Shown here: positions 3,224 to 26,048 of the stretch, one piece after another
Position numbering within the stretch: the first letter of the stretch is position 1
How the letters are laid out: each line of letters begins with the position of its first letter
Origin: Candidatus Iainarchaeum sp.
GTDB taxonomy: Archaea > Iainarchaeota > Iainarchaeia > Iainarchaeales > VGJJ01
Assembly (NCBI GenBank): GCA_016867455.1
Contig: VGJJ01000001.1
Span: 3,337 to 67,336, forward strand
Length of the DNA: 64,000 bases
Reading direction: 5' to 3'
Notes under the pieces: generated by a model
The model's database searches: none
Told to the model about the DNA's origin: nothing
The model's input: only the letters and a program-made list of their open reading frames with translations
Translations under genes and position numbers: made by a program

Positions 3224-4237
3224 ATGAAGATTGAACTCGCTCGCGCCGCTGGTTTTTGTTTTGGAGTCAAACGCAGCGTAAAACTTTCTCATGAGACACT
3301 CGACCAGGGTCCCGCATTCTTGTATGGGATGCCCGTGCACAATCAGCGAGTTGTCCAGAAAATCATTGACCACGGCGGAAAACTCGTGGAAGACAATCCC
3401 TACGCCGCGTCCAAAATTTCTCGCTTTACTCATTTGAATTCCATGGATGAAATTCCGGCAGGAAGCACCGTCCTCATGCGTGCGCACGGTGTTACCGTAC
3501 AAGCATTGGAAAAAGCCAAAGAAAAAGAGTTGAAAATCGTCGACACCACCTGCCCATTCGTGACCATGGTTCACAAGACCGCAAAAGTATTGTTTGATGA
3601 AAAATACCAAGTCATTATTGTGGGCGAACATGGTCATCCGGAAGTGGAAGGAATCAAAAGTTATGCCCCCAACGCGATTGTAGTGGAAAATGCGGAAGAA
3701 GCCAGCAAATTATTCCCGCGAAAAACACAATACTACACGAATGATGAACTCATGAAAGCTAAAACCGACGCGGAAGTAGTGGAAAAATTACATTATCCCG
3801 TGTTAACGAAGATTGGAATTGTTTCCCAAACCACCCAATCAAACGACAATGTGCAAGCCGTGGCCATGGCGGTCATGGGTAAAGCTCGTGAAGTAAGAGT
3901 GTACAACACTATTTGCAATGCCATGCATGAAATGCAGCCCGGTGCGGTGCAGCTTTCCACTCAAGTTAATGTCATGCTCATTATTGGGGGAAGAAATAGT
4001 GGAAACACCAAAAGACAGGCCGAATTGTGCGCGCAGCAGACGAAAACACACTGGATTGAATCCGCGGACGAGTTGAAACCCGAATGGTTTACGAATGTAA
4101 AACACGTGGGAATAGGCGCTGGCGCCAGTACACCGGATGAAGACATTGAAGACGTGATTGCGTGGTTGAAAAAATACGACAAGGAAACGAATCACGTTGA
4201 GAGTGAAATCATCCGCCCTGCGTACGTGGTGCATTGA
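3224..4237 (+). CDS. ispH: 4-hydroxy-3-methylbut-2-enyl diphosphate reductase (IspH/LytB)
   Basis: N-terminus MKIELARAAGFCFGVKRSV is the classic LytB block. Conserved Cys residues and ~340 aa length fit. The stop overlaps the next gene. Confidence 0.9.
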   Translation: MKIELARAAGFCFGVKRSVKLSHETLDQGPAFLYGMPVHNQRVVQKIIDHGGKLVEDNPYAASKISRFTHLNSMDEIPAGSTVLMRAHGVTVQALEKAKEKELKIVDTTCPFVTMVHKTAKVLFDEKYQVIIVGEHGHPEVEGIKSYAPNAIVVENAEEASKLFPRKTQYYTNDELMKAKTDAEVVEKLHYPVLTKIGIVSQTTQSNDNVQAVAMAVMGKAREVRVYNTICNAMHEMQPGAVQLSTQVNVMLIIGGRNSGNTKRQAELCAQQTKTHWIESADELKPEWFTNVKHVGIGAGASTPDEDIEDVIAWLKKYDKETNHVESEIIRPAYVVH

Positions 4238-4251
4238 AGAAGGTAAATTCC

Positions 4252-5142
4252 ATGCCTTCCTCGCTCACTCTTTCTTCTCCCGCTAAACTCACGCTGGTAC
4301 TGGATATTATCCGCAAGCGCGAGGATGGTTATCATGAAGTCGAATTAGTGCTGCAGGAATTGGCCATCCACGACACGATAACCATTGAAGCGCTTCCTCA
4401 TTCCAGTGAAATTATTCTCTCATGCACAGACGCAAGCGTTCCCTTGAATGAGAAAAACTCGTGCCACAAAGCAACCATTCTGATGCAAAATGAATTCGCC
4501 AGCCAAAATCCTGGCAAACCTATTCAGGGAGTGAAAATTCATATTGATAAAAAAATTCCTTCCGCGGGAGGATTAGGTGGGGGAAGTTCTAACTCGGCAA
4601 CGGTTTTGAAAGGGTTGAATGAGTTGTGGCAATTGAACTTGTCCAAGAATGTTCTCAAAAATTTGGGGGCGAAGATTGGTTCCGATGAAGTATTTTTGAT
4701 TGAAGGGGGAACGTGCATTGGTTTAGGTCGCGGAGAAATCGTTGAGCCTATTGAAAAATGTCCGCGTCTTGAACTCGCTATTATTACTCCCCCTGTCAAG
4801 GTTCCTGAGAAAAAAAGTGCGTGGGTATATGGTCATTTTGACGTGAACAAAGTTTCCCATCATTATTCGATACACGAAATGAGGAAAGCCATTCGATCGA
4901 ATGATCCTCAAAAAGTGGCCGAAAAAATGGGGAATGTTTTTGAAACACTTGAACTACTGGAGTACGCGGTCGTGTTTGCCCTCATTGAAGGGTTGAAGCA
5001 AATGTCGGGCGTCCGGACGAGTATGCTCGCCGGCGCCGGACCCACCGTGGTATGCGTGTGCGACTCTCAACGGACGGCGAGTCAAATCATTGAACCTTTC
5101 CGCGCGCGCGGGTGGGTGGCATTTACCACACACACGGTTTAG
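4252..5142 (+). CDS. ispE: 4-diphosphocytidyl-2-C-methyl-D-erythritol kinase (IspE, GHMP kinase)
   Basis: N-terminus SPAKLTLVLDI...EDGYHEVELVLQ matches the IspE family (compare E. coli PAKLNLFLYI...DGYH). GHMP ATP-binding loop IPSAGGLGGGSSNSA is present. ATG 4252 is preferred over the TTG at 4234 that overlaps the ispH stop. Confidence 0.85.
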   Translation: MPSSLTLSSPAKLTLVLDIIRKREDGYHEVELVLQELAIHDTITIEALPHSSEIILSCTDASVPLNEKNSCHKATILMQNEFASQNPGKPIQGVKIHIDKKIPSAGGLGGGSSNSATVLKGLNELWQLNLSKNVLKNLGAKIGSDEVFLIEGGTCIGLGRGEIVEPIEKCPRLELAIITPPVKVPEKKSAWVYGHFDVNKVSHHYSIHEMRKAIRSNDPQKVAEKMGNVFETLELLEYAVVFALIEGLKQMSGVRTSMLAGAGPTVVCVCDSQRTASQIIEPFRARGWVAFTTHTV

Positions 5143-5712: not shown

Positions 5713-7176
5713 TCAGCGGGAACGAATACTCAGTTGTTCCCCCACTTTTTGGTCGAACATGGACAAGAATGCCGGGGCCTGTTCTACTTCTAACCGGCAT
5801 CCGGCCGCGATGCGATGACCCCCTCCTTCGGCGGTTTTTCCTAATGCTACGCACGTTTCCTTTAACGCCGCGCCCAAATTCACTCCATTGCGTACGAGTT
5901 CACTCGTCGCGCGCGCACTGACTTTAATGCTCCCATCCTCATGCCTGGAAAACGCTACAATAGGTTTGTCGGTTTTGACGCCGCCACTTCCGTATAACAT
6001 TCCCGCGACGATTCCCACAATGGAATCCTTTATTTTATTCTCCGCGTCAAAAAAATAATAATTTTCATACTCGCGCAATCCTTCCGTCTGCATGAGTTGA
6101 ATTCCTTCCGCCAAATTGCGCCGGTGTTCTTGCAACAATCCCATGGCACGTGCATAATAGTCTTCGCGGTCTCCTAAACACACGTGGAAACCAATGGTTG
6201 ATTGTCCATTTCGTCCGCACGCGTTTAATACGGTGGAATATTCTTTGGCATCCCTCAATGGAGAATACGGATTTTCCCGCGTGAGCGTGTACACTTCCCC
6301 AATGAGTTCATTCAATTTCCATTCCGGCGTGTTGTGCTCGTGCAAGTGCATCAGTATCGCGGTGGAGAGTGTTTTTTTCTCACTCGCATTCAAATCTTCA
6401 TACGCTCGCCATTTCCCACTTTCGTCTTGCAGGGGAATGTCCAAGTTTTCCAAGAATTTGATGCAATTATCTTTGTTGGCTGTCAAATTGGGGAGAATGG
6501 GGCTTGTGGAAAAAGTTAGATACTGCGCCAGGGGACGAGAGATGCGTCCATATAATCGCAAGTCCGTTTTCACGCGCAACACGTCGGCATCCACTCCTTC
6601 CTGCACCATTTGTTGATTCAATCCCAGCAATCCATTTGAACGGGAGTCCTGCATGTCCCCGCACGCGCCCACTACTCCAATGGAGGCGAGTTCCTTGTTT
6701 TTGCGGGAAATAGCTTTCGCAGTATAATAGGCAATTCCCGCACTGGAAATTTCGACTCCCCCATCTAAACCAAATTCCATGGGATTGAGGTGTTGATCAT
6801 GGGCACCGTTTCCCCGCTGATGATGATCAATAATGTAGAATTCGTTTCCGTATTCGCTTTTGAGCGTGGGAATGTAGCTCGAACCAAAGTCGGTGAAGAT
6901 GAGAGTAGCGTGCATATTTTTGAGTCGCGAAATATCCTCCGTGTATAATTGCTTGAGCGTCACTGTGTTTACCTCAATTTGCTCCCGCTGCAGGGCTTTT
7001 ACCATGATGCTCCCGCTCGTTAAACCATCACAATCATGGTGGGTCACCACCACGGCTTTGTCTAATATGCGCAACTTTTCCGCGCATGCGTCAATGCGCT
7101 CAAAAAATGCTTTAACCGCTTCATCGCGCCCTTCTTTGGAAACAAGGGCATTCAATTCCTGCACGCTTCCGCCCAT
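5713..7176 (-). CDS. DHH-family phosphoesterase, archaeal RecJ-like (GAN/Cdc45-like) nuclease
   Basis: DHH motif VTHHDCDGLTSG. DHHA1-like C-terminal GGGHRIAAG. Length ~490 aa. Confidence 0.8.
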   Translation of the reverse strand: MGGSVQELNALVSKEGRDEAVKAFFERIDACAEKLRILDKAVVVTHHDCDGLTSGSIMVKALQREQIEVNTVTLKQLYTEDISRLKNMHATLIFTDFGSSYIPTLKSEYGNEFYIIDHHQRGNGAHDQHLNPMEFGLDGGVEISSAGIAYYTAKAISRKNKELASIGVVGACGDMQDSRSNGLLGLNQQMVQEGVDADVLRVKTDLRLYGRISRPLAQYLTFSTSPILPNLTANKDNCIKFLENLDIPLQDESGKWRAYEDLNASEKKTLSTAILMHLHEHNTPEWKLNELIGEVYTLTRENPYSPLRDAKEYSTVLNACGRNGQSTIGFHVCLGDREDYYARAMGLLQEHRRNLAEGIQLMQTEGLREYENYYFFDAENKIKDSIVGIVAGMLYGSGGVKTDKPIVAFSRHEDGSIKVSARATSELVRNGVNLGAALKETCVALGKTAEGGGHRIAAGCRLEVEQAPAFLSMFDQKVGEQLSIRSR

Positions 7177-8033: not shown

Positions 8034-11021
8034 TTATTCTGTCACTATTTCAGGCGCGGCCCGCAATCCAATGACGGAACTATTATTGCTGCTCTTGGCC
8101 ACCCCCACTATTCGGTCGGCGACTTTGACAATGCTATCATTGTGTGTAATGGAAATGAATTGCGAGGACTTGGACATTTCTCTAATCAACGCACCAATTT
8201 TTCTGGAATTATTCATGTCTAATGCCGCGTCCACTTCATCAAAGAAATAAAATGGCGCAGGCTCGTACAATTGTATAGCAAAAATGAACGCTAACGAAGT
8301 AAGTGACTTTTCCCCTCCGGACATAGAATCAATATTCTTCAGGCTTTTTTCCAAACCATGCTTGGCTTCGATGAGGAGTCCGGATTCCAGTGGTTTCGCT
8401 GGGTCCGTGAGTTCGAGTTTAGCGGTTCCATCAAAAAACCCGGTGTATATTTTGTTGAAATTCTCGCTTATTTTGTCAAATGTCCCCATGAATGTTTCAT
8501 TGCGCTTAGCATCAATGCTGTTAATCAAATCCAGCACCGCGAGTCTTTCCACGTCCAGTGTTTGAGACTTCTGCTTGATGTCCAATACATCTTTTTCATA
8601 CTGCGAAAAATCCTCCAGCGCCTTCATGTTGACGGTTCCTAATTGCCTGATTTCATGTTCAATCACCGGAATGCGCTTCTTCAATTCCAACGTGTCATTT
8701 TTTTCCAGTGTTTTGACTCCCTCAAAATTCTTCAATTCTTCGTTGACATCCGTTAAGCGTGTATCGTACTTGGATTGGTCAATCTTGATTTCATTCACCT
8801 GCCCTTCGATGCGAAACGCTTTTTCCTGCCATGCGCGCTCCTTTTCGCGTTCGCTGGTTATTTTTTGCCCCACCCTATCGCGCTTTTGGAGCAATGCTTG
8901 ATTGGCGTGAAGCATTCTATCATATTCTTGTTCCACTTGCGCGAGTTTTTTAATTAACTCTTCGCGCTTCTTTTCCTCTTGCTTTCGTGTTTCTTCCGTG
9001 TGTTTTTCTTCTTCTTTTACATGCTTCATTCTTGAGCTTGCTTGCACGAGCGCGTTATCGTGCACGCTTTTTTGGGTTTGGTATTGGAATAATTGCTTCT
9101 CGATGCGCGACTTTTCCTCGTTGAGCGAGTTAAGGGTTTGGTCCATCGTGGTTTGATTGAGTGCATCGCGGAGTTTATTGAGTTTTACTTCTAATACGTC
9201 GAGTGTTTTCTTTTCTTCAACCAATTTTTCTTCTAACTTTTTTCTTTCTCCGATTAATGAAACACTGCCCTCATCTTTTTCGCTCACTCTTGCTTTTTCC
9301 AACTCAGTAATGAGTATTTTTTCTTGTTTGGCATACTCGCTCATTTTTTCCTCGCTCACCGCGAGACGTTTCATGAGTGTTTCCGCGCGATGCAGTGCAT
9401 CCCATTCTTCGTGAAGTTTTTTCTTTTCTTCTTCCCATTTCTTTGCATGCAGGCGGGCTTCCTCAATGGCTTCCTTTTTTTGTTTAGCTAGTTCTTTTTT
9501 GTGCTCTTCCTTTAATTCGCGTTCGCAGATGGGGCAGTGGCTCTTGGTTTTTCCTAGTTGTGTCAAACTTTCCGTGTGCGCAAACACATGTCCATGGTGT
9601 TCAGCGACGTGGTGTTCAACTTCTTTCATTTCTTGTGAAATTTTTACCCGAGCTTTTTCTACATGGGGGTATTTTTTCTGGAGTTTCTCCAACTCTTCAA
9701 CATCATTCTTTAACAAACTAATTTCGCGTTTAACATTAACGATTTGCTTCTCTAATCGTTCACGCATGAGCTGAGTTAATTCATTGGAACGGCGGATGTT
9801 TTCCACTTTGGCATGAATATGGGCAATCTTTTCCCGAGTATGGGTCACCGTGTCGCGTGCGAATTGAACATCTTTCTCTATTTTTTGGGATTCGTTCAAT
9901 AATTCTACTTTTTTCTTGAGGGAATCGGCTTGCTTCTGGCGCAGAGGGGAGATTTTCCCCTCAATTTCAGCAAATTGGCTTTGCAACTGTTTGGATTCTT
10001 CATCTACTTTAACTATTCCTTCTTTGGCGTGCGTGGTGATGTGTTCAATTTCTTTTCTTGTATGAGTAAGTTCTTCTAGTTTTTGGGACGCGTGATGGAT
10101 GCGTTCTTCCGTGATGCGTATTTCGGATTTATTTTCTTCCACGCTCTTTCCCACGCTTTCGTACGCGTGGCTTTTAACGCCTAACACTTTTTGGTCTAAT
10201 TCCGTGAACTCTTTTTCCATTTCTTGAATAGCTTGTTGAGCGTCTTTTTGCTTGGTGATAGCCTCCTCTTTTTTTCCAATCAATTCCACTTGCCGCGTTA
10301 CAAGCCCTTCTAATTTCACATTCAACTCATGGGCTTCCGTGTGCAAGATAGTGGCTTTTGTTTCACGCAATTCTTTTTCGAGTTTTTTGAATTTGGATGC
10401 AATATCTCTTTCTTTCCCCAATTGTTCAATAATGGCCATGCGTTCGTTCAAAACAATGGTGACGTCTTTTACCTTTCGATCCACTTTTTCCAAGTCTTTT
10501 AGTGCCTCGTTTTTCTTTTCCTCAAATTCTTGCAGTCCCGCCACTTCATCAATGAGTTCTCTTCTCTCAATAGGATTCATGTCAATAATTCGCATGAGGT
10601 CTCCTTGCGAAACGAGATTGTGTCCATCCACGCGCAAACCTAGTTCATGCAGCAAATTCTGAATCTCTCCTAACGTGACTCGTTTTTCATTCAAACGATA
10701 CACGGATTTTCCCTGCTTGTCAATGGTGCGCGATAATTCATACGAGTTTTCTTTTCCTTGGAGAGTGAGATTAACCACTGCATAGTTTTCTCCCGCGGGG
10801 GCGCCGGAAAACACTAAGTCGGTTAAACGTGCGGCGCGGATGGATTTCAGGCTTGTTTCTCCCAATGCAAATAATACCGCGTCCATGATGTTGCTTTTTC
10901 CGCTGCCATTCGCTCCGGCAATGGCGGTAAATCCTTTCGTGAAGGGAATGGTGACGTTCTTGAATGATTTAAAATTTTTGAGACGAAGCTTGGTGAGCGT
11001 TAGTTCGGTTATTTCACTCAT
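8034..11021 (-). CDS. rad50: Rad50-like SMC-family ATPase (Walker A, coiled coil, CxxC zinc hook, signature motif)
   Basis: N-terminal Walker A AGANGSGKSN. Central CPICERELKEEHKK hook in the middle of a long coiled coil. C-terminal signature SGGEKSLTSLAFIFA and Walker B FYFFDEVDAALD. Confidence 0.75.
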   Translation of the reverse strand: MSEITELTLTKLRLKNFKSFKNVTIPFTKGFTAIAGANGSGKSNIMDAVLFALGETSLKSIRAARLTDLVFSGAPAGENYAVVNLTLQGKENSYELSRTIDKQGKSVYRLNEKRVTLGEIQNLLHELGLRVDGHNLVSQGDLMRIIDMNPIERRELIDEVAGLQEFEEKKNEALKDLEKVDRKVKDVTIVLNERMAIIEQLGKERDIASKFKKLEKELRETKATILHTEAHELNVKLEGLVTRQVELIGKKEEAITKQKDAQQAIQEMEKEFTELDQKVLGVKSHAYESVGKSVEENKSEIRITEERIHHASQKLEELTHTRKEIEHITTHAKEGIVKVDEESKQLQSQFAEIEGKISPLRQKQADSLKKKVELLNESQKIEKDVQFARDTVTHTREKIAHIHAKVENIRRSNELTQLMRERLEKQIVNVKREISLLKNDVEELEKLQKKYPHVEKARVKISQEMKEVEHHVAEHHGHVFAHTESLTQLGKTKSHCPICERELKEEHKKELAKQKKEAIEEARLHAKKWEEEKKKLHEEWDALHRAETLMKRLAVSEEKMSEYAKQEKILITELEKARVSEKDEGSVSLIGERKKLEEKLVEEKKTLDVLEVKLNKLRDALNQTTMDQTLNSLNEEKSRIEKQLFQYQTQKSVHDNALVQASSRMKHVKEEEKHTEETRKQEEKKREELIKKLAQVEQEYDRMLHANQALLQKRDRVGQKITSEREKERAWQEKAFRIEGQVNEIKIDQSKYDTRLTDVNEELKNFEGVKTLEKNDTLELKKRIPVIEHEIRQLGTVNMKALEDFSQYEKDVLDIKQKSQTLDVERLAVLDLINSIDAKRNETFMGTFDKISENFNKIYTGFFDGTAKLELTDPAKPLESGLLIEAKHGLEKSLKNIDSMSGGEKSLTSLAFIFAIQLYEPAPFYFFDEVDAALDMNNSRKIGALIREMSKSSQFISITHNDSIVKVADRIVGVAKSSNNSSVIGLRAAPEIVTE

Positions 11022-17831: not shown

Positions 17832-17997
17832 TCGTCATCCGTGTTTAAATGGATTCTTCCACGAGGAATAGTATATTGGCCTATCGAGCGCAAGCGAAGA
17901 TAGTCCGTCAACCTTTTAGCAAAAGGTTGATCAAAAGAGTGCCTACCACCGCAACGCGGTTGGTAGTCCGTTAGCGTCAACCGATAATGCGGTTGTT

Positions 17998-18080
17998 GCG
18001 GAGTTGGCAGAGCGGTCAAATGCACTGGTCTCGAAAACCAGGGCCTCACGGCTACGAGAGTTCGAATCCCTCACTCCGCG
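17998..18080 (+). tRNA. tRNA-Ser (anticodon CGA), type II with long variable arm
   Basis: Acceptor GCGGAGT/ACTCCGC. Anticodon stem CTGGT/ACCAG with loop CTCGAAA. Variable arm ~14 nt. T-arm GAGAG-TTCGAAT-CCCTC. Discriminator G. No encoded CCA. Confidence 0.8.
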
Positions 18081-18200
18081 CTTCGCGCCATTATCCATCT
18101 GGCGGGTCGGTATAGAGGTATCGCAGCGCGATACCTCGGCTGAACGTTTCTTTTTGACCGCGCACCACTTTTTCTCACTCAAAGAAAAAGGGGCGCTTCT

Positions 18201-18217
18201 GAATCCCTCACTCCGCG
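18201..18217 (+). repeat. Exact 17-nt copy of the tRNA-Ser 3' end (GAATCCCTCACTCCGCG), 120 nt downstream of the gene
   Basis: Identical to 18064..18080, seen directly. It follows an AT-rich palindrome CTTTTTCTCACTCAAAGAAAAAGG (18168-18191). Confidence 0.7.
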
Positions 18218-18253
18218 TCCAATTTACCATCATTTAATGAGACAAAATCAAAA

Positions 18254-18595
18254 CTAATCGTCTTCTACTTCTATTTTTAGTCCGCCCACCATTTTGGCGA
18301 CGGCGTTATACACTAATGCAACGAGTGCGCCGGAAATGAATCCGGTGACAATTCCTAAAACCAAGAAAAATAACAATCCAATGAATCCCAATTGCTGCGT
18401 TTTCTCTATCAAATCAATGGGAGTGCCGGAGAGTGTTTGCAAGTATCCCGATACAATTCCCGATGTGAGTAAGGAAAGTATTCCCATGAGCAGTCCCATC
18501 ACGAATCCAAAGATGGCATTTACTTTTCCCAGCATGAGGGGGTCGACGTGATGGATGGTTAATCGTTTGCTCGTCATGCGCAACACCGCATTCAT
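18254..18595 (-). CDS. Small membrane protein (3 TM), hypothetical
   Basis: Hydrophobic helices with an acidic C-terminus EVEDD. Confidence 0.45.
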   Translation of the reverse strand: MNAVLRMTSKRLTIHHVDPLMLGKVNAIFGFVMGLLMGILSLLTSGIVSGYLQTLSGTPIDLIEKTQQLGFIGLLFFLVLGIVTGFISGALVALVYNAVAKMVGGLKIEVEDD

Positions 18596-18663
18596 TAGTC
18601 CAAAAATCGGGTGTTAATAAAGGTGAGTGCACGTGGGAAAGAATTTCTGTCGAAAACGACTCA

Positions 18664-18990
18664 TTATGCTTCCGCAAAAGCAGAACATTTTTCTAGTTTT
18701 TTCGTGAGTTGAGTGAAGAGCTTTTTGGCATCCTTTTCCACGTTCAGGTTTTTGAACAAAAATCTCCCGGAGGGGTATAAACTCACGCGTATTCCTTGGA
18801 AATGAAACACTAATACAAAAGCCGTTTTCACATCAAACATTAATCCTTCGTCCGCAAGTTGATTCCCCAATGTTGTGAGATTTAGTTTCAAGTTTGGTTG
18901 CGTGAAAAATTCGTATGAGACGTTGGATTCGCATAGCCTTCCTTGGTAGTATTTTCGAGACATTTTTTCACGACACTGATTATTTTTCAA
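18664..18990 (-). CDS. Small hypothetical protein, 18 nt downstream of the large ATPase gene on the same strand
   Basis: ORF with a basic, helical C-terminus. No motif recognised. Confidence 0.4.
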   Translation of the reverse strand: MKNNQCREKMSRKYYQGRLCESNVSYEFFTQPNLKLNLTTLGNQLADEGLMFDVKTAFVLVFHFQGIRVSLYPSGRFLFKNLNVEKDAKKLFTQLTKKLEKCSAFAEA

Positions 18991-19008
18991 TGAATTTTTG
19001 CAACACGA

Positions 19009-22000
19009 TTATTCATTCAGAATAGTTCCCGTGTATCCGTCCATTTTCACGATGCGGTGTTCGCCCGTTTTCGTGTTAATTAATAATCCTTCAAACAAGG
19101 GTCGATAAATTTCTTTCACGGTATTCACCACTACATTCGGCCACAAATTAGTAAGGAGTGCGTGGAGTTGTTCTTCGGAATATTTTGGAATGGATTTGGC
19201 AATGTTTGTCACGTGCACGAGTTTGAGTGCTTGCAATGAAGATAATTGCTTCTCCCCTCCCGAGAAGGGGATGTCCAAGTCCTTTGCAATGACAAATGTG
19301 GGGAGCGTGTTTTCGTTCAACACGCGAATCATTCCTCGATCACGCAGTTTGACGAGAGAGCGCTTCACGGTCTTTTCATCTAGTCCTGTTTTCTTTTGGA
19401 GGTTGGCAATGGTTTGTCCCCCCATGCGTATCATGCGTAAAACGTGCTGGTCATTCGTGGAGAGTCCGGCCAGTGCTTGCAACCCATTCGATGTCACGAA
19501 TTGGTTGTTCAAGTAATGCAAAAATTCTCCTTTTTCGGCGTCAATGAAGCATTCTCGTACGACATAGGATGTTTTTCCGGTGAATTGCCGGTATTGGACT
19601 TTCCATATGGGAACATACGATAGAGTGACTTCTTTGAGTTGCTCGGCGGGTTTTCCTATTCCTAATAATGTTTTTTTGCTTGCTTTCAAAAATCGTTGAA
19701 CGATTTCCTCACGTGAATACGGAACGGGGAATGCGGACAAGTCCGTGTCCTCATTTATAGAGGGAAGTTCGACGAGTTTAGCGAGGTTTTCAACTTTTTG
19801 CACCGCGGCTAACTCGGCTTCGGGCAATGGTTGAGTGTGCTTATCTTTTTCTTTTTTGGAAATGACTTCCACAAAGTTGGGGGATTTTACGGCTTCTGTT
19901 TTCGGGTCGATGCGTGCTCCGCGTGCTTCCATTTCGTCTAATATACTAGATAGGAGCATTTTTTGTCCGTATTTTTGGTTGAGCATTCCCATGACTTGTT
20001 CAATCGTTTCCTTATCTAACATTCCTTCTTTTTCTAATTTGGACATGAGTAAGGATACACACAGCATGCGGGCTTCTTTTTCGCTCATGGATTTTTTACG
20101 CTCTCCCGTTTCCGCATCCCTTCCTTCGTGTTGGGACATGCGTGGACGAATTTTGAGTACGAATGCGCGGTTGGTTTCCTCGCGGCGGTCTCCCACGAGA
20201 GCCGTTCCCACGGGGAGCGTTTTCAAAAAGTGGGGGTGTTTGTATTTCATGGGAATAATGGTTGGCGTGCGTTTGGTTACGGCTTTAATGTCATCATCAA
20301 AAATGAGTTTGTGCGAGAGAATAATATCCAATTGACTCAAAACACGGGTGTCAATCGCGGATGGTTGCTGCGTGGCAAACACGAGTGAACAGCCTGGTCG
20401 GCGTCCCTGCTTTACGTATTCAACAATTGCTGTCGTCGCAGGAGTAGAAACATTCCCCCCCGGAATGAGGGTGTGGGCTTCATCAATGAACAACCACGTG
20501 GGAGGGATTTCGTTTTCCATGAGACTCTCAACGGATTTTTCCATGGGTTCGTTCGCGGCTTCTTTGCGTGTTTGAATTTTTCGCGCCGCCAAAAGTCTTC
20601 GTGCGAGAATTCCAATAACGAGTGCAGTCACCGTGTCATCCAAAAAACTCGTGTCAATAACCGTGAGTTGTCCCGCGCGGGATATTTCACTTAATGGGGT
20701 TCCTTTGTCAGAGAATATTCCCCATCCCTTGGCGGCTTCAAATCGTGAAACGAGGGCGCGCACACTGTCTGTTTTGTATCCTTTTTCTTTGGAATTTAAT
20801 TCGGTATCATTTTCTAAGCACGCAACGAGTTCGTTGAGCGTGTACGCGTCTTTTTTTCCTTTGATGGTTTCTCCGCCAGTACTGCGATATCCTTTTTCTA
20901 ATTTCTTGAGGGCTTTTTCTAATAGTAATCCCGTGGGAGAGAATCGTTCAATTCCAAATGTTAGACACCAATCCTCACTCGTGAGTAGTGAAGGGGGAAC
21001 GGAGAATAATGCATCATACGTTGAGCGGGGGGTTTCGCTTTTCATTCCTTCGGGGATGAACACGCGCATGTTTTCTAACCCTTGCGGCATGAGTTCATAG
21101 TGCGGGAGTTCTTTCACTTCTTTTTCTTCCTTGTTGGGATAGCGCATGGACCAGAATACTCCCACGGGGTCAACCACTACAATTCCCACGTTCGTGTTGT
21201 GCAATGCTAATTCTTCCGCGAGCACTCCTAACAAGTATGATTTTCCGCTTCCGCGTGAACCGCATGTGAAAATAACATGTGGGTTGAGTGAGTCCACGTA
21301 CAATTTGAAGGCGCGATAACGCTCATCATCTTGTACTTTTCCCACGTACAACGCGCCATCCAATCCTGATTTTTGCATGACGCTGCGTTTTCGTCCAATG
21401 AAAATGGCTTTCTTTTTTTCATCTTCTAATAAGGATAATTTGAGCACGCTCGCGGGTTCCTCTAATGCATGTCCTCTTGTTTTGAGTAAAATGTTTTGTT
21501 TGATTTGTTCACGTGAAACCGCATGCTCATCCACTCCCTCCACGGGTTCAATGGGTGGACGCTCAACGAGAGTATGTTTGGCAGAAACTCCTTCGGAATG
21601 AATTCCTTCTTCTTGGATCCCATGTTCAAACAAAAAATCATCTTCATCCATGGGGGGCATTTCTCCTTCTTCTACGGACGAGGAATGAGCCGAGGCGCGC
21701 GTATCTTCGTGTGAGTGTGTTTCCATTTCTTCTTCGCTTTCACTTGTTGCGCGTCCTTTCTTTTTGCGCAAGGGAATCATGCGTGAATTTTCTTCCGTGT
21801 CGGCAGACAAATCATCGTCCAAATTTGTGCGTTTTTCTTCGTCGTTGTTTGGTGGAGTTTCTTCCCCTTTTTCTTCAGCATCCCCTTCGCGCTCCACATC
21901 TTGCATAATCTTATCAAAGGGGTCCTGGTGCCCTTTTTCCACGTGAACACGGGGCTTTTTTTCTTCACTCATGGGTGGAACTACGTTTTTGGACTTATAA

Positions 22001-22065
22001 TCCTTGTCCACCCCTCCCAACACCCATAAAAACAAGGAATGGGTTCCTTTCTCGTGAAAAAGCAC
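19009..22065 (-). CDS. Very large HerA/FtsK-superfamily (DUF87-type) P-loop ATPase with acidic N-terminal region and C-terminal winged-helix-like domain
   Basis: Walker A FTCGSRGSGKSY. Walker B LFIDEAH. FtsK/HerA/VirB4-type motif LVFATQQPSAID. About 230-aa acidic, low-complexity N-terminus. C-terminal LRMIRMGGQTIANLQKKTGL...LVKLRDRGMI resembles a wHTH fold. Confidence 0.75.
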   Translation of the reverse strand: MLFHEKGTHSLFLWVLGGVDKDYKSKNVVPPMSEEKKPRVHVEKGHQDPFDKIMQDVEREGDAEEKGEETPPNNDEEKRTNLDDDLSADTEENSRMIPLRKKKGRATSESEEEMETHSHEDTRASAHSSSVEEGEMPPMDEDDFLFEHGIQEEGIHSEGVSAKHTLVERPPIEPVEGVDEHAVSREQIKQNILLKTRGHALEEPASVLKLSLLEDEKKKAIFIGRKRSVMQKSGLDGALYVGKVQDDERYRAFKLYVDSLNPHVIFTCGSRGSGKSYLLGVLAEELALHNTNVGIVVVDPVGVFWSMRYPNKEEKEVKELPHYELMPQGLENMRVFIPEGMKSETPRSTYDALFSVPPSLLTSEDWCLTFGIERFSPTGLLLEKALKKLEKGYRSTGGETIKGKKDAYTLNELVACLENDTELNSKEKGYKTDSVRALVSRFEAAKGWGIFSDKGTPLSEISRAGQLTVIDTSFLDDTVTALVIGILARRLLAARKIQTRKEAANEPMEKSVESLMENEIPPTWLFIDEAHTLIPGGNVSTPATTAIVEYVKQGRRPGCSLVFATQQPSAIDTRVLSQLDIILSHKLIFDDDIKAVTKRTPTIIPMKYKHPHFLKTLPVGTALVGDRREETNRAFVLKIRPRMSQHEGRDAETGERKKSMSEKEARMLCVSLLMSKLEKEGMLDKETIEQVMGMLNQKYGQKMLLSSILDEMEARGARIDPKTEAVKSPNFVEVISKKEKDKHTQPLPEAELAAVQKVENLAKLVELPSINEDTDLSAFPVPYSREEIVQRFLKASKKTLLGIGKPAEQLKEVTLSYVPIWKVQYRQFTGKTSYVVRECFIDAEKGEFLHYLNNQFVTSNGLQALAGLSTNDQHVLRMIRMGGQTIANLQKKTGLDEKTVKRSLVKLRDRGMIRVLNENTLPTFVIAKDLDIPFSGGEKQLSSLQALKLVHVTNIAKSIPKYSEEQLHALLTNLWPNVVVNTVKEIYRPLFEGLLINTKTGEHRIVKMDGYTGTILNE

Positions 22066-22140
22066 CCCAGACCCTCATCACAATCCCCTCGTGCGTCCCC
22101 CGCACATGCTCATACGACTGCGCATCACACGCATTCTCCC

Positions 22141-22518
22141 ATGTTTTATGCGTGGGAATTGATTACACTATCCTGCGTCTTCTTTGTTGCCGAAGCATTT
22201 TTTGGACACCCCTTCATTCACGTGGATACGGAAACCGAACACATCCTCGAACTCGCCGTGGAAGGGGCGGAAGTCATTCTCATTGCCGAAGTCGCATTAT
22301 TATTAATCGTCGCACGCGACAAAGTTTCTCATATCAAACGAAATTGGTGCAATATCCTCGCGGTTGCTCCCGCGGGGGGAAGTTTACGCATAGTTACCAT
22401 CATTAAAATTACCTGGCACGCTTTTGAAAAAACACGATTGGGTCACTTTTTCAAACACCCCATTCAATACTCGCGGCGCTGGATACGGGTAAAATTAGGC
22501 CTCCGTCCCCTGGCTTGA
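22141..22518 (+). CDS. Possible small membrane protein (low confidence), divergent from the ATPase gene
   Basis: The only clean ORF in a ~470-nt gap. Two predicted hydrophobic helices. No homology recognised, and it could be non-coding. Confidence 0.25.
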   Translation: MFYAWELITLSCVFFVAEAFFGHPFIHVDTETEHILELAVEGAEVILIAEVALLLIVARDKVSHIKRNWCNILAVAPAGGSLRIVTIIKITWHAFEKTRLGHFFKHPIQYSRRWIRVKLGLRPLA

Positions 22519-22554
22519 ACCGTTTTTAAACGCACCCACTCAAGAATGATATAC

Positions 22555-22625
22555 CAGGCCAGTTTCGGCTGGCCGCAGCGAGAGACTACTTATAAGGGAT
22601 TGCACGCAATCCCTTGAGGTAGGCT
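22555..22625 (+). ncRNA. Two-hairpin sRNA-like element 'B' (GGCCAG-TTTCGG-CTGGCC; AAGGGATTGCACGCAATCCCTT; T4 tail)
   Basis: Same architecture as element A, with compensatory changes in the stems. Confidence 0.3.
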
Positions 22626-22652
22626 TTTGATCAAACTTTTTCAAAAAGTTTG
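22625..22652. terminator. GATC palindrome TTTTGATCAAACTTTTTCAAAAAGTTTG abutting the tRNA-Ala 5' end
   Basis: Perfect 10-bp arms CAAACTTTTT / AAAAAGTTTG. The last G is nucleotide 1 of the tRNA. Confidence 0.45.
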
Positions 22653-22723
22653 GGCAAGTAGCGCAACGGTAGCGCGTCCGCTTCGCATGCGGGAGGCTGG
22701 GGGTTCGAATCCCCCCTTGTCCA
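22652..22723 (+). tRNA. tRNA-Ala (anticodon CGC) with the G3:U70 identity pair
   Basis: Acceptor GGGCAAG/CTTGTCC (position 3 G pairs with T). D-arm GCGC-AACGGTA-GCGC. Anticodon loop TTCGCAT. T-arm GGGGG-TTCGAAT-CCCCC. Discriminator A. No encoded CCA. Confidence 0.85.
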
Positions 22724-22832
22724 TCGCCCATTCCGTAGGGCGAATCCGGTATAGTGGGATAGCAGAGCTATCCCACGTCTTTTGATCAAACTTTTAGAAA
22801 AAGTTTGTTTGATTTCCCCCTTGTCCATGGCC
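22712..22832 (+). repeat. 121-nt direct repeat, copy 1: tRNA-Ala 3' end + conserved two-hairpin trailer + GATC palindrome + second copy of the tRNA 3' end CCCCCTTGTCCA
   Basis: Identical to 23001..23121, compared base by base. Internal hairpins CGCCC-ATTCCGTA-GGGCG and GTGGGATAGC-AGAG-CTATCCCAC. Confidence 0.8.
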
Positions 22833-22870
22833 TGTTTCGGAACCCTTTAGTAAAGGGTTCATCGAAATTT
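22828..22870 (+). ncRNA. Two-hairpin sRNA-like element 'E' (degenerate first hairpin; AACCCTT-TAGTA-AAGGGTT; T4 tail)
   Basis: It follows the second copy of the tRNA-Ala 3' end and is followed by the palindrome at 22868-22895. Confidence 0.25.
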
Positions 22871-22894
22871 TGATCGAACTTTTTTCAAAAGTTC

Positions 22895-22950
22895 GGCAGG
22901 CCGCCTCGAGAAACGGGTTATCGTTTCACGATAACCCCTATTTTTCTTTT
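22895..22950 (+). ncRNA. Two-hairpin sRNA-like element 'C' (GGCAGGCCGCC...; GGGTTATCG-TTTCA-CGATAACCC; T5 tail)
   Basis: Same family. Followed by the palindrome CTTTTCTTTTATCAAAAGAAAAGG (22963-22986). Confidence 0.25.
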
Positions 22951-23000
22951 GACTCCGAATTACTTTTCTTTTATCAAAAGAAAAGGAACTCTTCTGATTT

Positions 23001-23121
23001 CCCCCTTGTCCATCGCCCATTCCGTAGGGCGAATCCGGTATAGTGGGATAGCAGAGCTATCCCACGTCTTTTGATCAAACTTTTAGAAAAAGTTTGTTTG
23101 ATTTCCCCCTTGTCCATGGCC
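23001..23121 (+). repeat. 121-nt direct repeat, copy 2 (lacks the 5' two-thirds of the tRNA)
   Basis: Identical to 22712..22832. Preceded by CTTCTGA, as is the tRNA-Ser 3' copy. Confidence 0.8.
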
Positions 23122-23183
23122 GCTAACCTGCGGCCGTGCGGAAGTTAGGGAAACATGAATGTTCCCTAGACAAACTATTTTTC
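23118..23183 (+). ncRNA. Two-hairpin sRNA-like element 'D' (GGCCGC-TAACCT-GCGGCC; AGGGAAACAT-GAA-TGTTCCCT; ACA; T5 tail)
   Basis: Closest relative of element A: same TAACCT loop, and an ACA triplet after hairpin 2. Confidence 0.3.
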
Positions 23184-23199
23184 GCCAACCATTTTTATA

Positions 23200-23778
23200 G
23201 TGCAATTCACTCGTACACGCATGCATTTCCCTATTCGCTTGCTCATTGGTCTTGTTTTCTTGGTGATGATTTCACCAACGATTTTTGCGGCAGATGTTTA
23301 CATTCTTCGCGCTATCACAGTCCCCCAAACGTATTTGACGGGATATGTGGATGTGGAGATTACGATTGAAAATGTGCAATTCAATCAACAAGGATATGGT
23401 GCTGCATCCTCGGGCAATCAATTGATCCATACCTCGATTCGAAATGACAAAGGGCAATTTCTCCCAGGTTTTGATGACTATCAAACATCTATCCCATTGC
23501 CCGCCGCAATAAATGTGATCAACGTGACAATTCCCCAATCTTCATTGAACGCGGGGGAAATATACACTATTCAAGCGAGTATTGATCCATACAATCCAAA
23601 TGGAACAACATACGATGAAACCACTAAAGGAAATAATTCCGCACGCAAGACATTTACCGTATTAAAAGCTCCGCAAACGTATCAAGTTCCCGACATGCCA
23701 TTCGAATTATCCTTCGCGGGCATGTTGCTCGTGTTGAGCGGATTATTTTATTATGGTCGAGTGAAAAAAAATAATTAA
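23200..23778 (+). CDS. Secreted protein with signal peptide and C-terminal TM anchor plus basic tail
   Basis: Signal peptide MHFPIRLLIGLVFLVMISPTIFA. C-terminal FAGMLLVLSGLFYYGRVKKNN. Several N-x-S/T sequons. Confidence 0.55.
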   Translation: MQFTRTRMHFPIRLLIGLVFLVMISPTIFAADVYILRAITVPQTYLTGYVDVEITIENVQFNQQGYGAASSGNQLIHTSIRNDKGQFLPGFDDYQTSIPLPAAINVINVTIPQSSLNAGEIYTIQASIDPYNPNGTTYDETTKGNNSARKTFTVLKAPQTYQVPDMPFELSFAGMLLVLSGLFYYGRVKKNN

Positions 23779-23832
23779 TTATCTCGACCAAGCAAAATTA
23801 AACTAACTAATTTTCTTGCCGGTTCTGCCAAA

Positions 23833-23861
23833 CAAACTTTTTAGAAAAAGTTTGATCAAAA
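23833..23861. terminator. GATC palindrome in reverse orientation (CAAACTTTTTAGAAAAAGTTTGATCAAAAA) at the 3' ends of convergent genes (secreted protein and ferredoxin)
   Basis: Perfect inverted repeat with flanking T- and A-runs. It lies between convergent genes. Confidence 0.45.
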
Positions 23862-23864
23862 ATA

Positions 23865-24143
23865 CTAAATAATTTTCTTGCCAGTTTTGTCAAACAAGTG
23901 AATCACATTCACGGGGCAAGAGTCCGCGGCTTCCTTGTTGGGAGTATACTGTGCTTGGGCAATGTCTCTTTGTTCACCATCTTCTCCGCTTTCGAGTTTG
24001 ATGTGAATGGATCCCTTCAAGTTGCTCTTTCCATCCACGGGGGACATTTCCCAATAATCCGGTGCCACGGCTGCGCAGGCCCCGCATCCAATACAATTGG
24101 GTCGGTCGTGTTTGATTTGATAGTCGGGCATAGGATATTCCAC
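23865..24143 (-). CDS. Small [4Fe-4S] ferredoxin
   Basis: CIGCGACAAVAP...CPV cluster-binding pattern (CxxCxxC...CP). 92 aa. Confidence 0.7.
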   Translation of the reverse strand: MEYPMPDYQIKHDRPNCIGCGACAAVAPDYWEMSPVDGKSNLKGSIHIKLESGEDGEQRDIAQAQYTPNKEAADSCPVNVIHLFDKTGKKII

Positions 24144-24290
24144 CTCAATTCGGAATGGTTATACTAAAAACGCGCAAAAAGTAATTTTAAAGGTATAGGA
24201 ACAAATCACGAAAATCCCTCCCATTAGCGAAATTACGGGCGTTTATGTTTTCAGTTTATAACGGTTTTCCGACCGTGATTGTAGTGAAAT

Positions 24291-24363
24291 AGCCCCATCG
24301 TCTAGTGGTCAAGGATATGGGACTCTGACTCCCAGGACCTGCGTTCGAATCGCAGTGGGGCTA
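24291..24363 (+). tRNA. tRNA-Gln (anticodon CTG)
   Basis: Acceptor AGCCCCA/TGGGGCT. Anticodon stem TGGGA/TCCCA with loop CTCTGAC. T-arm CTGCG-TTCGAAT-CGCAG. Discriminator A. T-tract immediately downstream. Confidence 0.8.
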
Positions 24364-24422
24364 TTTTTATTTTCACGCCACCCATTAAATACTAGAAAAT
24401 CGTTAATCACGTCCGGATACGC

Positions 24423-26048
24423 ATGAATGCTCCGGATTCTCTTTCTGAAAGAAAACAAACCAAATTCATTATCGTCACGGGAGGAGTCGTCTCCGGCCTC
24501 GGTAAAGGAATTGCTGCCGCATCCATTGGCCGCTTGCTTGTTTCGGCGGGGTTGAAAGTGATTCCCATCAAGATGGATGGCTACTTGAACGTGGATCCGG
24601 GGACGATGAATCCCATGGAGCATGGGGAAGTGTTCGTGTTGGATGACGGGGGAGAAGTCGACATGGATTTTGGTCATTATGAACGCTTCTTGAATGTTGT
24701 TCCAAAGTCGCATTGGAATTTGACCATGGGAAAAATATTTGATTATGTGAGACAGAAAGAACGCAAGGGAGATTATTTGGGAAAGACCGTGCAGTACATT
24801 CCTCACGTCACAAGCGCTATTAAAGAAAAAATAATGCACGTGGTGAGTGAAGAACGCCCGGATGTAGTGTTGATTGAAGTCGGTGGAACGATTGGGGACT
24901 TGGAGAACGAATTGTACGTGGAAGCGGTTCGCCAATTGAAGAAAGATGTGGGGGTGAACAACATTGCGTATGTTCACCTCACGTATGTTCCTATTTTCGC
25001 GGGAACGAAGGAACAAAAATCAAAACCCACGCAGCAAAGCGTAAACATTCTGCGTCAGCGCGGATTGCAACCGGATATTATTATTGGGCGATGTGCGCGA
25101 AAACTCGATGATAGCATTAAAGAAAAAATTGCATTATTTGCGGACATTGAAAAGGAATCCGTTATTACGGGTTTGGACGTGGATAACGTGTATGAGATTC
25201 CCCTCGTTTTTCAGGAAGAGGGAATCTTGAAACAATTGAATGAAAAATTGCAATTGAATGCCATTCCCAAAATGGATGAGTGGAAAAAACTCGTTAGCAA
25301 CATGAGTCGTGCTCCTAAAACAATTAACATTGCGCTGTGTGGAAAATACACTAAACTAGAAGATAGTTATGCGAGTGTGATTGAAGCCTTGCATCACGCG
25401 GGGGCGCATGTTAATGTTATTCCTAAAATTCATTGGATTGAAACCACGCGCATTGAAGAAGGCACGTTAAACGTGGAAGACGCATTACGCGGAATGGATG
25501 GCATTATTGTTCCCGGTGGTTTTGGTTCACGCGGGGCGGAAGGAAAAATTTCCGTCATTCAGCACGCGCGCACGCACCACATGCCCTATTTGGGATTGTG
25601 TTATGGCATGCAGCTCGCGGTAATTGAATACGCACGCAATCGCTGCGGTCTCTCCCTTGCGAACAGCACGGAAATCAATCCACGCACAACATTTCCAGTG
25701 ATTGATTTGCTTCCGGAACAAACAACCATTACTCAGAAAGGAGCCACCATGCGTTTGGGCGGGCAAGACGTGGAAATTAAGCCTCAAACGAATGCCGAAA
25801 AATTATTTGGTCCCGTGGCACGTTTGCGTTTTCGCCACCGATACGAGGTTAACCCTGCCTTCATTGAAAAACTGGAAAATATGGGACTTATTTTCTCAGG
25901 TAAAGCACCGCAGCGTGAAATTATGCAAATCATGGAACTCCCCGACCATCCCTTTTTCATGGCTACGCAGGCGCATCCGGAATTGACTTCGCGATTAGAC
26001 AAGCCGTGTCCTTTCTTTCATGCGTTTGTCCGTTCCTGCGTGAAATGA
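24423..26048 (+). CDS. pyrG: CTP synthase
   Basis: N-terminal IIVTGGVVSGLGKGIAAASIG. Glutamine amidotransferase C-terminal domain with GLCYGMQLA. 541 aa. Confidence 0.9.
   Translation: MNAPDSLSERKQTKFIIVTGGVVSGLGKGIAAASIGRLLVSAGLKVIPIKMDGYLNVDPGTMNPMEHGEVFVLDDGGEVDMDFGHYERFLNVVPKSHWNLTMGKIFDYVRQKERKGDYLGKTVQYIPHVTSAIKEKIMHVVSEERPDVVLIEVGGTIGDLENELYVEAVRQLKKDVGVNNIAYVHLTYVPIFAGTKEQKSKPTQQSVNILRQRGLQPDIIIGRCARKLDDSIKEKIALFADIEKESVITGLDVDNVYEIPLVFQEEGILKQLNEKLQLNAIPKMDEWKKLVSNMSRAPKTINIALCGKYTKLEDSYASVIEALHHAGAHVNVIPKIHWIETTRIEEGTLNVEDALRGMDGIIVPGGFGSRGAEGKISVIQHARTHHMPYLGLCYGMQLAVIEYARNRCGLSLANSTEINPRTTFPVIDLLPEQTTITQKGATMRLGGQDVEIKPQTNAEKLFGPVARLRFRHRYEVNPAFIEKLENMGLIFSGKAPQREIMQIMELPDHPFFMATQAHPELTSRLDKPCPFFHAFVRSCVK

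Follow-up and report, generated by a model that had tools for sequence, protein, structure and literature searches.

An inherited chromosomal locus of Iainarchaeia with an uncharacterised HerA/FtsK-superfamily ATPase and a half-TBP neighbour

Canonical HerA, the archaeal helicase of DNA double-strand-break repair, is not known to have a winged helix-turn-helix (wHTH) tail or an acidic N-terminal linker. Bacterial FtsK has a linker between its membrane anchor and its motor, and DNA polarity signals are read by its gamma winged helix. The compact DUF87 ATPases, such as mad8 of MADS and an ATPase of a Haloplanus plasmid (WP_251331428.1), consist of the motor only and occur in defence or plasmid contexts. 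Here we describe a 987-amino-acid (aa) ATPase that departs from each of these plans, and the locus that encodes it, in a 64,000-nucleotide (nt) stretch of DNA from Candidatus Iainarchaeum sp. (GenBank assembly GCA_016867455.1, contig VGJJ01000001.1, positions 3,337 to 67,336 of the forward strand; hereafter the window, in whose own numbering all coordinates are given). By its motifs and domain matches, the protein is a member of the HerA/FtsK superfamily of P-loop pumps. It lies in a 4.5-kb interval between genes for tRNA-Ser and tRNA-Ala, and this interval is an ancestral, vertically inherited and non-mobile chromosomal locus of an Iainarchaeia (Diapherotrites, DPANN) archaeon. On balance, we think it probable that the locus encodes a chromosomal double-stranded DNA (dsDNA) translocase for segregation, resolution or repair.

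Architecture and affinities of the ATPase

The ATPase gene occupies 19009-21972 on the minus strand, as do all the parts of the protein given below, counting from the ATG start of the public annotation; the raw open reading frame (ORF), 19009-22065, reaches a GTG at 22065. Its product is 100% identical to P0001, which NCBI names 'ATP-binding protein, Candidatus Diapherotrites archaeon'. In an alignment of 30 ATPase orthologues (alignment A4), about 145 columns are invariant, mostly in the motor domain, and the ATPase is under strong purifying selection. At the N-terminus stands a short linear motif (aa 8-25, RVHVEKGHQDPFDKIMQD; 21898-21951) with the family consensus R-V-x(6-9)-D-x-F-[DE]-[DE]-x-[FLM]-G, whose D17 and F19 are nearly invariant in the 30 orthologues amid variable surroundings. 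It leads into a poorly conserved acidic linker (aa 25-183; 21424-21900) that is presumed to be disordered. An earlier note on this DNA, made from the letters alone, had described an acidic N-terminus, and the first 183 aa do hold 27% D/E with a net charge of -26. This region differs in length between orthologues; in the 13 whose linkers were measured it is 120-265 aa long with 27-34% D/E, and mostly unalignable.

The motor domain (aa 185-620; 20113-21420) matches Pfam DUF87 (E 2.6e-15; 57.6 bits against a cut-off of 23.2) and HerA_C (E 5e-6). Motif reading placed a Walker A GSRGSGKS (aa 238-245; 21238-21261), a Walker B WLFIDEAH (aa 493-500; 20473-20496), a GRRPG (20392-20412) and an ATQQPS (20359-20376), all with residues that are invariant or nearly so in the 30 orthologues. 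We take GRRPG...ATQQPS to be the counterpart of the FtsK/HerA GRK.G...TQRP arginine-finger and glutamine signature. The FtsK/HerA-type ATPase with Walker A, Walker B and ATQQP motifs that the earlier note had proposed is thus borne out. The acidic linker ends at ~aa 183 and Walker A starts at aa 238; the conserved stretch between them, where the DUF87 match begins, has just about 50 residues. With so few ahead of the P-loop, the motor would seem to have no room for the N-terminal HAS barrel of HerA (~100 aa).

A helical segment joins the motor to a 250-aa C-terminal module (aa 738-987; 19012-19761), in which an AlphaFold model (aa 609-987, pLDDT 88.1) places a wHTH (19321-19455) between two alpha/beta domains. 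When this model was compared with the PDB in Foldseek, the wHTH matched MarR- and ArsR-type domains at probability 1.00, and also Z-alpha, in agreement with the C-terminal wHTH read earlier; its recognition helix is K/R-rich, and the best structural matches are DNA-binding repressors. The flanking alpha/beta domains gave no Foldseek PDB match at E <= 0.001, and a weak Pfam PepSY hint in the C-terminal region (E 0.033) went unconfirmed. The ATPase has no predicted transmembrane (TM) segment (maximum 19-aa Kyte-Doolittle hydropathy 1.49). The C-terminal module was found in 65 cluster representatives out of 1.84 billion, C-terminal in every one. Among its carriers are DUF87 ATPases of smaller size, for instance one of 666 aa named as Woesearchaeota and one of 598 aa named as Methanomicrobium sp. 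W14; the gene for the latter stands amid mutS/mutL, ksgA and ribosomal-protein genes. Since these ATPases share it, the architecture of motor plus wHTH module predates the Iainarchaeial family.

Family models recognise the ATPase at superfamily level, and we therefore regard it as a deeply diverged HerA/FtsK branch that falls in no named family. The HerA equivalogs of NCBIfam gave 33.3 bits against a cut-off of 970 (NF040819) and 32.2 bits against 800 (NF040937). The conjugation-type models VirB4_plasma (28.1 bits against 590) and TIGR00929 (15.7 against 643) and the DNA-import models CedB (12.2 bits against 700) and CedD (15.6 against 600) were also far below their cut-offs, and no secretion or transfer genes of VirB4/Ced type were seen in the window. 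Pfam FtsK_SpoIIIE and FtsK_gamma did not match the ATPase at E <= 0.1. In PHROGs, the matches were again at superfamily level and included a terminase PHROG. The best PDB sequence matches were HerA-type chains (E ~1e-5), the closest of which include the anti-phage HerA complexes 8xau, 9c1m and 8wiv; they covered just the region from Walker B to the sensor, and a 30-sequence profile left this range unchanged. The best full-motor match was the PADLOC model mad8 (E 1.2e-22; ATPase aa 210-620, profile positions 6-311 of 314), with several anti-phage HerA models ranking next.

Comparison with the known systems shows where the ATPase agrees with each and where it departs. With HerA it shares the RecA-like P-loop core, Walker A and B, the GR(K/R).G...(T/S)Q(R/Q)P signature and the pair of DUF87 and HerA_C. 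However, the similarity is confined to the Walker B-sensor region, the equivalog scores are about 30 times under cut-off, there would seem to be no space for a HAS barrel, there is no NurA partner, and the ATPase adds the N-terminal peptide, the acidic linker and the 250-aa C-terminal beta-wHTH-beta module. The likeness to the bacterial chromosome translocases FtsK/SpoIIIE lies in the succession of a tether, a long and flexible linker, a hexameric-pump-type motor from the same superfamily and a winged helix at the C-terminus. Here TM segments are missing, membrane contact would need separate proteins or the N-terminal peptide, and the wHTH is MarR/TrmB-like with two extra flanking domains. The FtsK resemblance is one of architecture alone, not of family membership. 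The compact DUF87 ATPases give the best full-length motor match (for the 389-aa Haloplanus protein, 31% identity over 405 aa), although the window ATPase is 2.5 times longer, chromosomal and conserved in its lineage.

The Haloplanus protein, the closest motor-only relative in the plasmid collection, is encoded on plasmid NZ_CP098519.1 of Haloplanus sp. HW8-1 (L093, 114950-117258). Its gene overlaps by 4 nt a gene for a 380-aa, weakly PglZ-like protein and adjoins a BREX ATP-binding gene and a PD-(D/E)XK nuclease/helicase pair, and the whole looks like a defence island.

Inheritance of the interval and its genes

An orthologue of the ATPase is encoded in 236 stretches of a species-representative collection (one genome per species), and the 80 that were kept, on which the identity range rests, are 44-94% identical. 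Nearly all named orthologue records are from Iainarchaeum/Diapherotrites, with the complete chromosomes CP064981.1 and CP010424.1 among them. The neighbourhood survey covered 91 loci. The gene order of the interval, from tRNA-Ala to tRNA-Ser, recurs in relatives whose ATPases are 60-94% identical. In contigs with orthologues at 60-87% identity it is part of a larger block, recognisable in L001, L002, L008, L009, L010 and L011, that runs pyrG, tRNA-Gln, ferredoxin, tRNA-Ala(CGC), orf159, ATPase, p108, DUF3566 gene, tRNA-Ser(CGA), orf411 and orf349. Among the contigs with this order is a complete Iainarchaeum chromosome of 1.05 Mb. About 20 loci of the closer subclade keep the ATPase, p108 and DUF3566 genes tightly clustered with a divergent orf159, and in L001, L002, L008, L009, L011, L013, L020 and L023 the ATPase cluster has a tRNA-Ser(CGA) gene downstream. 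Orthologues at 45-53% identity sit amid housekeeping genes, often still near tRNA-Ala(CGC), which is found within ~5 kb upstream of the ATPase in many loci family-wide.

The composition of the interval is ordinary. Its GC content of 0.44-0.47 is like that of the rest of the window, the ATPase GC3 is 0.464 (window 0.481 +/- 0.039), and the codon-usage divergence of the gene is 0.055 (window 0.067 +/- 0.023). Among 51 window ORFs, Pfam recognised no integrase, transposase, Cas1, NurA or Mre11, and tblastn with an archaeal Xer-type (Phage_integrase) protein matched neither the window nor any of the loci. Among 2.9 million viral contigs there was one partial ATPase match; phage records gave an 82-aa superfamily-level match alone, and plasmids motor-level similarity alone, with the Haloplanus plasmid ATPase as the best.

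In some orthologues, ~50-85% identical to the window protein, the ATPase is interrupted by a LAGLIDADG-domain intein after the Walker A lysine (GSGK, then C as the first intein residue). They are P0005, P0006, P0008, P0056, P0075, P0084, P0115 and P0119, with examples at L008 8001-12314 and L009 3465-7760. The junction was read directly in four orthologues, at the same site in each, and the BLAST break-points of the rest are concordant; the window ATPase itself is intein-free. Archaeal inteins are known almost exclusively from conserved proteins of replication, repair and nucleotide metabolism, and we read the P-loop intein as a further sign of a core information-processing gene.

The three minus-strand ORFs that the earlier note had described as an operon are there, with later starts for the first two: 21972 for the ATPase, and for p108 probably the ATG at 18963, which gives 99 aa (18664-18963). 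The DUF3566 gene comes third (18254-18595; 107-113 aa by start codon), and the gaps are 45 nt between the ATPase and p108 genes and 68 nt between the p108 and DUF3566 genes. A profile of p108 homologues matched the TATA-binding protein (TBP) of M. jannaschii in the PDB (2z8u, E 1.6e-5). The AlphaFold model of p108 (pLDDT 90.2) had TBP as each of its top 36 Foldseek PDB matches, at probability 0.95-1.00 and query TM 0.50-0.60. Many p108 homologues hold a precomputed PF00352 (TBP) assignment, and nearly all are 75-123 aa long. At 99 aa, p108 is a single ('monopartite') TBP domain, or half-TBP. We considered and rejected p108 as TBP proper, as it has one domain in 99 aa against two tandem domains in a saddle of ~180 aa; it is clearly distinct from the cell's two-domain TBP.

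Monopartite TBP-domain proteins have been described, in the available part of Brindefalk et al. 2013 (PMC3597702), from Thermococcales and a few other euryarchaea, with function unknown. As they appear there, p108 is alike in its stand-alone single-domain build of ~95-100 aa; those proteins are from Thermococcales and other euryarchaea and the p108 family from Diapherotrites, and it is by domain build that we liken the two. The same portion of that paper contains no link of a single-TBP-domain protein to a HerA-like ATPase.

The small membrane protein of the earlier note corresponds to the DUF3566-family protein (Pfam PF12089, 28.4 bits against a cut-off of 22.2), with hydrophobic stretches at aa 19-52 and aa 65-104. 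Neither it nor p108 had a match in PHROGs or PADLOC. The ~470 nt next to the cluster, earlier put down as non-coding or small-ORF sequence, hold a real gene, orf159 (22039-22518, plus strand), divergent from the ATPase. Its product of ~159 aa has three hydrophobic segments (aa 42-60, 69-97 and 106-124) and no Pfam match, and tblastn found it at the syntenic divergent position, 47-73% identical, in six relatives (L001, L002 and L008-L011). The third hydrophobic segment (LRIVTIIKITWHAFEK) carries basic residues at regular intervals, which recall the S4 helix of voltage sensors. Between the starts of the ATPase and orf159 genes is an AT-rich divergent spacer of 66 nt (21973-22038), flanked on either side by the AT-rich boxes TTATAA and ATAAAAAC; read from the sequence, it is a putative promoter region.

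Proposed role of the locus

We postulate the following sequence of steps, in which hexamer formation, the DNA substrate, membrane tethering and the cellular role are all things we infer. The motor would form a hexamer that translocates dsDNA with ATP, as the characterised HerA/FtsK pumps do, and we give this DNA-pump step, taken by itself, about an even chance. The wHTH, possibly with a dimer of the TBP-domain protein, would engage the DNA. The N-terminal peptide may act in docking and tie the motor to a cellular site, and small membrane proteins may do so too in the closer subclade. The role would be one of chromosome maintenance, in which chromosomes are segregated or resolved at division or ends are processed during repair. 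The link to DNA is suggested by the MarR/ArsR-type wHTH with its K/R-rich recognition helix and by the adjacent TBP-domain gene. The link to the membrane is suggested by the DUF3566 protein and orf159, which are hydrophobic and conserved as neighbours in about 20 loci. Of the two possibilities left by the earlier note, a DNA-translocation module is still the best reading of the locus, but as a chromosomal core function and not as something mobile.

Several observations weigh against this proposal. First, p108 and the DUF3566 gene are tightly linked to the ATPase only in the subclade where ATPase identity is at least 60%; in distant loci p108 is 1.5-6.6 kb off (about ten loci) or unseen. Second, the DUF3566 and orf159 profiles matched once each at the loci of distant orthologues, and the ATPase, p108 and the DUF3566 protein need not act together. 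Third, wHTH and TBP-like folds can bind RNA or proteins too. Fourth, the nearest compact relatives of the motor include defence-island ATPases (mad8, and the 31% identical Haloplanus protein with its PglZ/BREX-like neighbours). Lastly, literature searches returned no paper on this ATPase family or on HerA-like proteins of DPANN.

The main rival takes the ATPase for a strongly diverged HerA belonging to this lineage, which would resect DNA ends as a helicase together with a nuclease and the Rad50-like protein whose gene lies ~8 kb off, and would not be a segregation pump. It narrows the DNA-motor reading and assigns a different role in the cell; we consider it unlikely, if worth keeping in view. 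The best characterised sequence relatives are indeed HerA helicases, and at 8034-11021 the window encodes a 995-aa SMC_N protein with a Rad50 zinc-hook match and at 5713-7176 a DHH/DHH-CID/DHHA1 (RecJ/GAN-like) protein. A Rad50-like gene also lies 3.5-8 kb from the ATPase in L001, L002, L003 and L011, one orthologue being 48% identical. However, this nearness may be mere inherited gene order, and in the window the Rad50-like gene is 8 kb off and non-adjacent, with no NurA or Mre11 domain found by Pfam in the 51 ORFs. Equivalog scores of 32-33 bits against cut-offs of 800-970, the ~50 ordered residues ahead of the P-loop, probably too few for a HAS barrel, and a wHTH tail and acidic N-terminal linker that are not known from canonical HerA all argue in the same direction.

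A more specific form of the proposed translocase, which we offer as speculation with a somewhat smaller chance of being right than a diverged HerA, is an FtsK-like pump whose motor is split from its membrane anchor. The ATPase, the half-TBP protein and the small membrane proteins would together make up an independent Iainarchaeota solution to segregation or resolution. The N-terminal peptide would target the motor, and the wHTH and a homodimer of the TBP-domain protein would guide it on DNA.

There is rather less to be said for a motor that does not act on DNA. It would remodel proteins or RNA, or regulate in an ATP-dependent way, with protein or RNA as the ligand of its wHTH and its TBP-like partner; we hold this to be improbable. 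Both folds, the wHTH and the TBP-like helix-grip, have uses other than DNA binding; for example, the N-domain of RNase HIII, which has a TBP-like fold, binds RNA/DNA hybrids. A conserved N-terminal peptide with a long acidic linker is typical of hub-tethered remodellers, and the Methanomicrobium relative is named 'putative transcriptional regulator' in one source. TBP domains are also reported, in the available part of PMC3597702, from COPG and adaptin appendages. The K/R-rich recognition helix and the DNA-binding repressors among its best structural matches speak for DNA instead. Most characterised members of the HerA/FtsK superfamily, moreover, translocate nucleic acid.

Defence was the other possibility raised in the earlier note. 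The ATPase would then be an anti-virus motor of HerA type, as in HerA-Sir2, HerA-DUF4297 or MADS mad8, with its small neighbours as sensors or effectors. The ranking of mad8 (E 1.2e-22) and then anti-phage HerA models in PADLOC, the anti-phage complexes 8xau, 9c1m and 8wiv as closest PDB sequences, and the 31% identity of the motor to a plasmid ATPase beside PglZ/BREX-like genes all fit this. Yet the PADLOC and PDB matches span the generic motor alone, PADLOC matched only the ATPase, and no nuclease, Sir2, methyltransferase or other mad gene is adjacent. The fixed syntenic position throughout the class and the extremely conserved motor are at odds with the patchy, fast-evolving nature of defence genes, and several orthologues carry the P-loop intein. 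We therefore judge a defence module very unlikely.

Least credible, and in our view to be dismissed, is the remnant of a conjugative, integrative or viral element inserted at a tRNA gene, the 'degraded integrated element' of the earlier note: the tRNA genes at both ends, the tRNA 3'-end copies nearby and the similarity to VirB4, CedB/CedD and a terminase PHROG speak for it, and that note took such ATPases to be typical of conjugative or integrative elements and viral packaging, but the similarity is superfamily-level (VirB4, CedB/CedD and HerA models at 12-33 bits against 590-970), the viral contigs hold a single partial match, the entire interval is syntenic in relatives with ordinary GC and codon usage and without integrase, transposase or Cas1, and the Ser and Ala repeats differ, each closing 85-165 nt and leaving the operon unbracketed.

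Units behind the tRNA genes, the wider window and implications

The two tRNA genes that the earlier note had placed at the ends of the interval were confirmed by ARAGORN and Rfam: tRNA-Ser(CGA) on the left (17998-18081, plus strand; Rfam tRNA 54.7 bits) and tRNA-Ala(CGC), which has a G3:U70 pair, on the right (22652-22723, plus strand; 68.9 bits). Both programs also called tRNA-Gln(CTG) at 24290-24364 (plus strand). In window 16-26 kb at E <= 1, Rfam reported these three tRNAs alone, with no RNA family over the tRNA trailers. The duplicated 3' ends are real as well. An exact copy of the final 17 nt of tRNA-Ser (18064-18080) lies at 18201-18217, 137 nt downstream, for which our own arithmetic gives a chance of ~140 x 4^-17, or ~1e-8. 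The tRNA-Ala 3' end with its trailer (22707-22832, 126 nt) recurs at 22996-23121, 289 nt downstream, with 98% identity, and two further tRNA-Ala 3'-end copies lie at ~22811 and ~23100. These repeats are far beyond chance. Their position on both flanks of the interval, as first described, did not stand: the tRNA-Ser copy closes a unit of a mere 120 nt, and all tRNA-Ala copies are to the right of tRNA-Ala, outside the interval. No tRNA 3'-end repeat brackets the operon, each bounding just a non-coding unit of 85-165 nt, and the sequence difference between the Ser and Ala repeats means that no single element can have had them as its attL and attR. The tRNA-linked miniature units are a phenomenon separate from the ATPase locus.

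The unit behind tRNA-Ser (18082-18217, plus strand; repeat family D18) consists, in order, of hairpin 1, GGTATAG, hairpin 2, a T-run, an AT-rich palindrome and the 17-nt copy, and the predicted fold of 18082-18200 has -46.2 kcal/mol. Behind tRNA-Ala is an array of three units (22724-23121, plus strand; repeat families D1 and D3), A at 22724-22810, B at 22833-22997 and A' at 23017-23099, each ending in a tRNA-Ala 3'-end copy. The CGGTATAG motif occurs three times in the window against 0.06 expected, each time following the 3' end of a tRNA or a copy of such an end. When all 74 tRNAs of the window and loci were scanned with one mismatch allowed, 8 repeated their own last 14 nt within 600 nt downstream and none did so upstream. 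The common plan of the units opens with hairpin 1, GGTATAG or GAGAAAC, hairpin 2 and a T-run (TTTTTCTTTTGAC), and continues with a variable 9-10 nt, an AT-rich palindrome, TTCTGAAT or TTTGATT, and the tRNA-specific 3' end. Hairpin 2 preserves a stem of 8-10 bp despite many paired substitutions (for example AGGTATCGC/GCGATACCT, TGGGATAGC/GCTATCCCA, GGAGTATTGC/GCAATACTCC and GGGTTATCG/CGATAACCC).

In relatives, units were located at L008 14851-15064, L009 2797-2910 and 10303-10432, L015 6136-6350, L017 ~9300-9585 and L060 1-70, and the window, L015 and L017 have tandem arrays. The window, L009 and L008 share a homologous tRNA-Ser unit, whose downstream copy follows, genome by genome, the diverged sequence of the local tRNA. 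A near-identical internal sequence stands behind tRNA-Ser in the window and behind tRNA-Ala in L017, and the 'TCCGAATTA' variant follows tRNA-Ala in both the window and L017, and tRNA-Ser in L008. In the type-A unit of the window, the right arm copies, at 93%, the 29 nt that immediately precede the real tRNA-Ala gene. Motifs of the small units, used in two exact-pattern scans of the metagenome collection, found nothing.

Three models could account for these units, namely decayed att-flanked integrative elements, target-duplicating insertions as with casposons, and tandem duplication of a tRNA gene and its trailer followed by internal deletion. As in CIME-like att-flanked remnants and casposon-type insertions, direct repeats of a tRNA 3' end flank short inserts directly 3' of a tRNA, sometimes in tandem; the units differ in being 85-165 nt long and in lacking a nearby integrase or Cas1, and terminal inverted repeats were not seen. 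The same internal sequence behind different tRNAs, with locally matching repeats, is not what simple site-specific integration predicts. Alternative 3' exons or split-tRNA halves were considered and dropped, since the first copy already completes a normal tRNA. A replication origin in the repeat region at 22.6-24.3 kb was also dropped, as there is no Orc1/Cdc6 nearby and the repeats derive from tRNA 3' ends. The cumulative GC skew has its minimum (-0.80) at ~23000-24500, which falls together with the repeat-rich stretch from tRNA-Ala to tRNA-Gln, and then rises to +0.47 at 43 kb.

Other observations concern the same region. The AT-rich palindrome family (CTTTTGATCAAACTTTTnnAAAAGTTTG and variants) recurs at 17909-17938, 22624-22652, 22779-22807, 22841-22867, 22867-22895, 23068-23096 and 23835-23861, that is, upstream of both tRNA genes, inside the small units and between the convergent ends of orf192 and the ferredoxin gene; judged from the sequence, it could be a promoter or terminator element or a protein-binding site. 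The orientation of tRNA-Ala(CGC) relative to the ATPase is opposite to that in the closest relatives (L002, L008, L009, L011, L013, L015, L018, L019 and L020) and is shared by more distant orthologue loci such as L005, L030 and L062. This inversion in the window fits recombination activity at the tRNA-Ala site. In L011, a 112-aa gene that is missing from the window lies between tRNA-Ala and the orf159 homologue.

Elsewhere, genes of the MEP/DOXP isoprenoid pathway, which is of bacterial type, lie at 1865-5142 (Dxr 1865-3058, IspH/LytB 3209-4237, GHMP kinase 4234-5142); archaea normally use the mevalonate route. The SMC_N/Rad50-like gene of 995 aa and the DHH-type gene are ~8-13 kb from the ATPase, with no Mre11 adjoining. 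A large glycan-biosynthesis region fills 35600-64000, with many glycosyltransferases, sugar epimerases/dehydratases and Alg14/Alg13-like genes, and it holds four B12-binding radical-SAM enzymes.

The tRNA boundaries and 3'-end repeats are thus no island signal here. The locus is ordinary in being chromosomal and inherited, yet it holds an uncharacterised, lineage-defining motor ATPase of unusual architecture with a half-TBP neighbour. This neighbour gives a genomic context to a protein class which has been discussed as a model of how TBP arose. To our knowledge, most archaea are without FtsK, and chromosome movement and resolution are poorly known in archaea, and in DPANN especially. Strong conservation across the Iainarchaeum/Diapherotrites genomes sampled, a layout that parallels FtsK and the P-loop intein of some orthologues make this ring-pump-type ATPase a concrete candidate for a core DNA-handling function.

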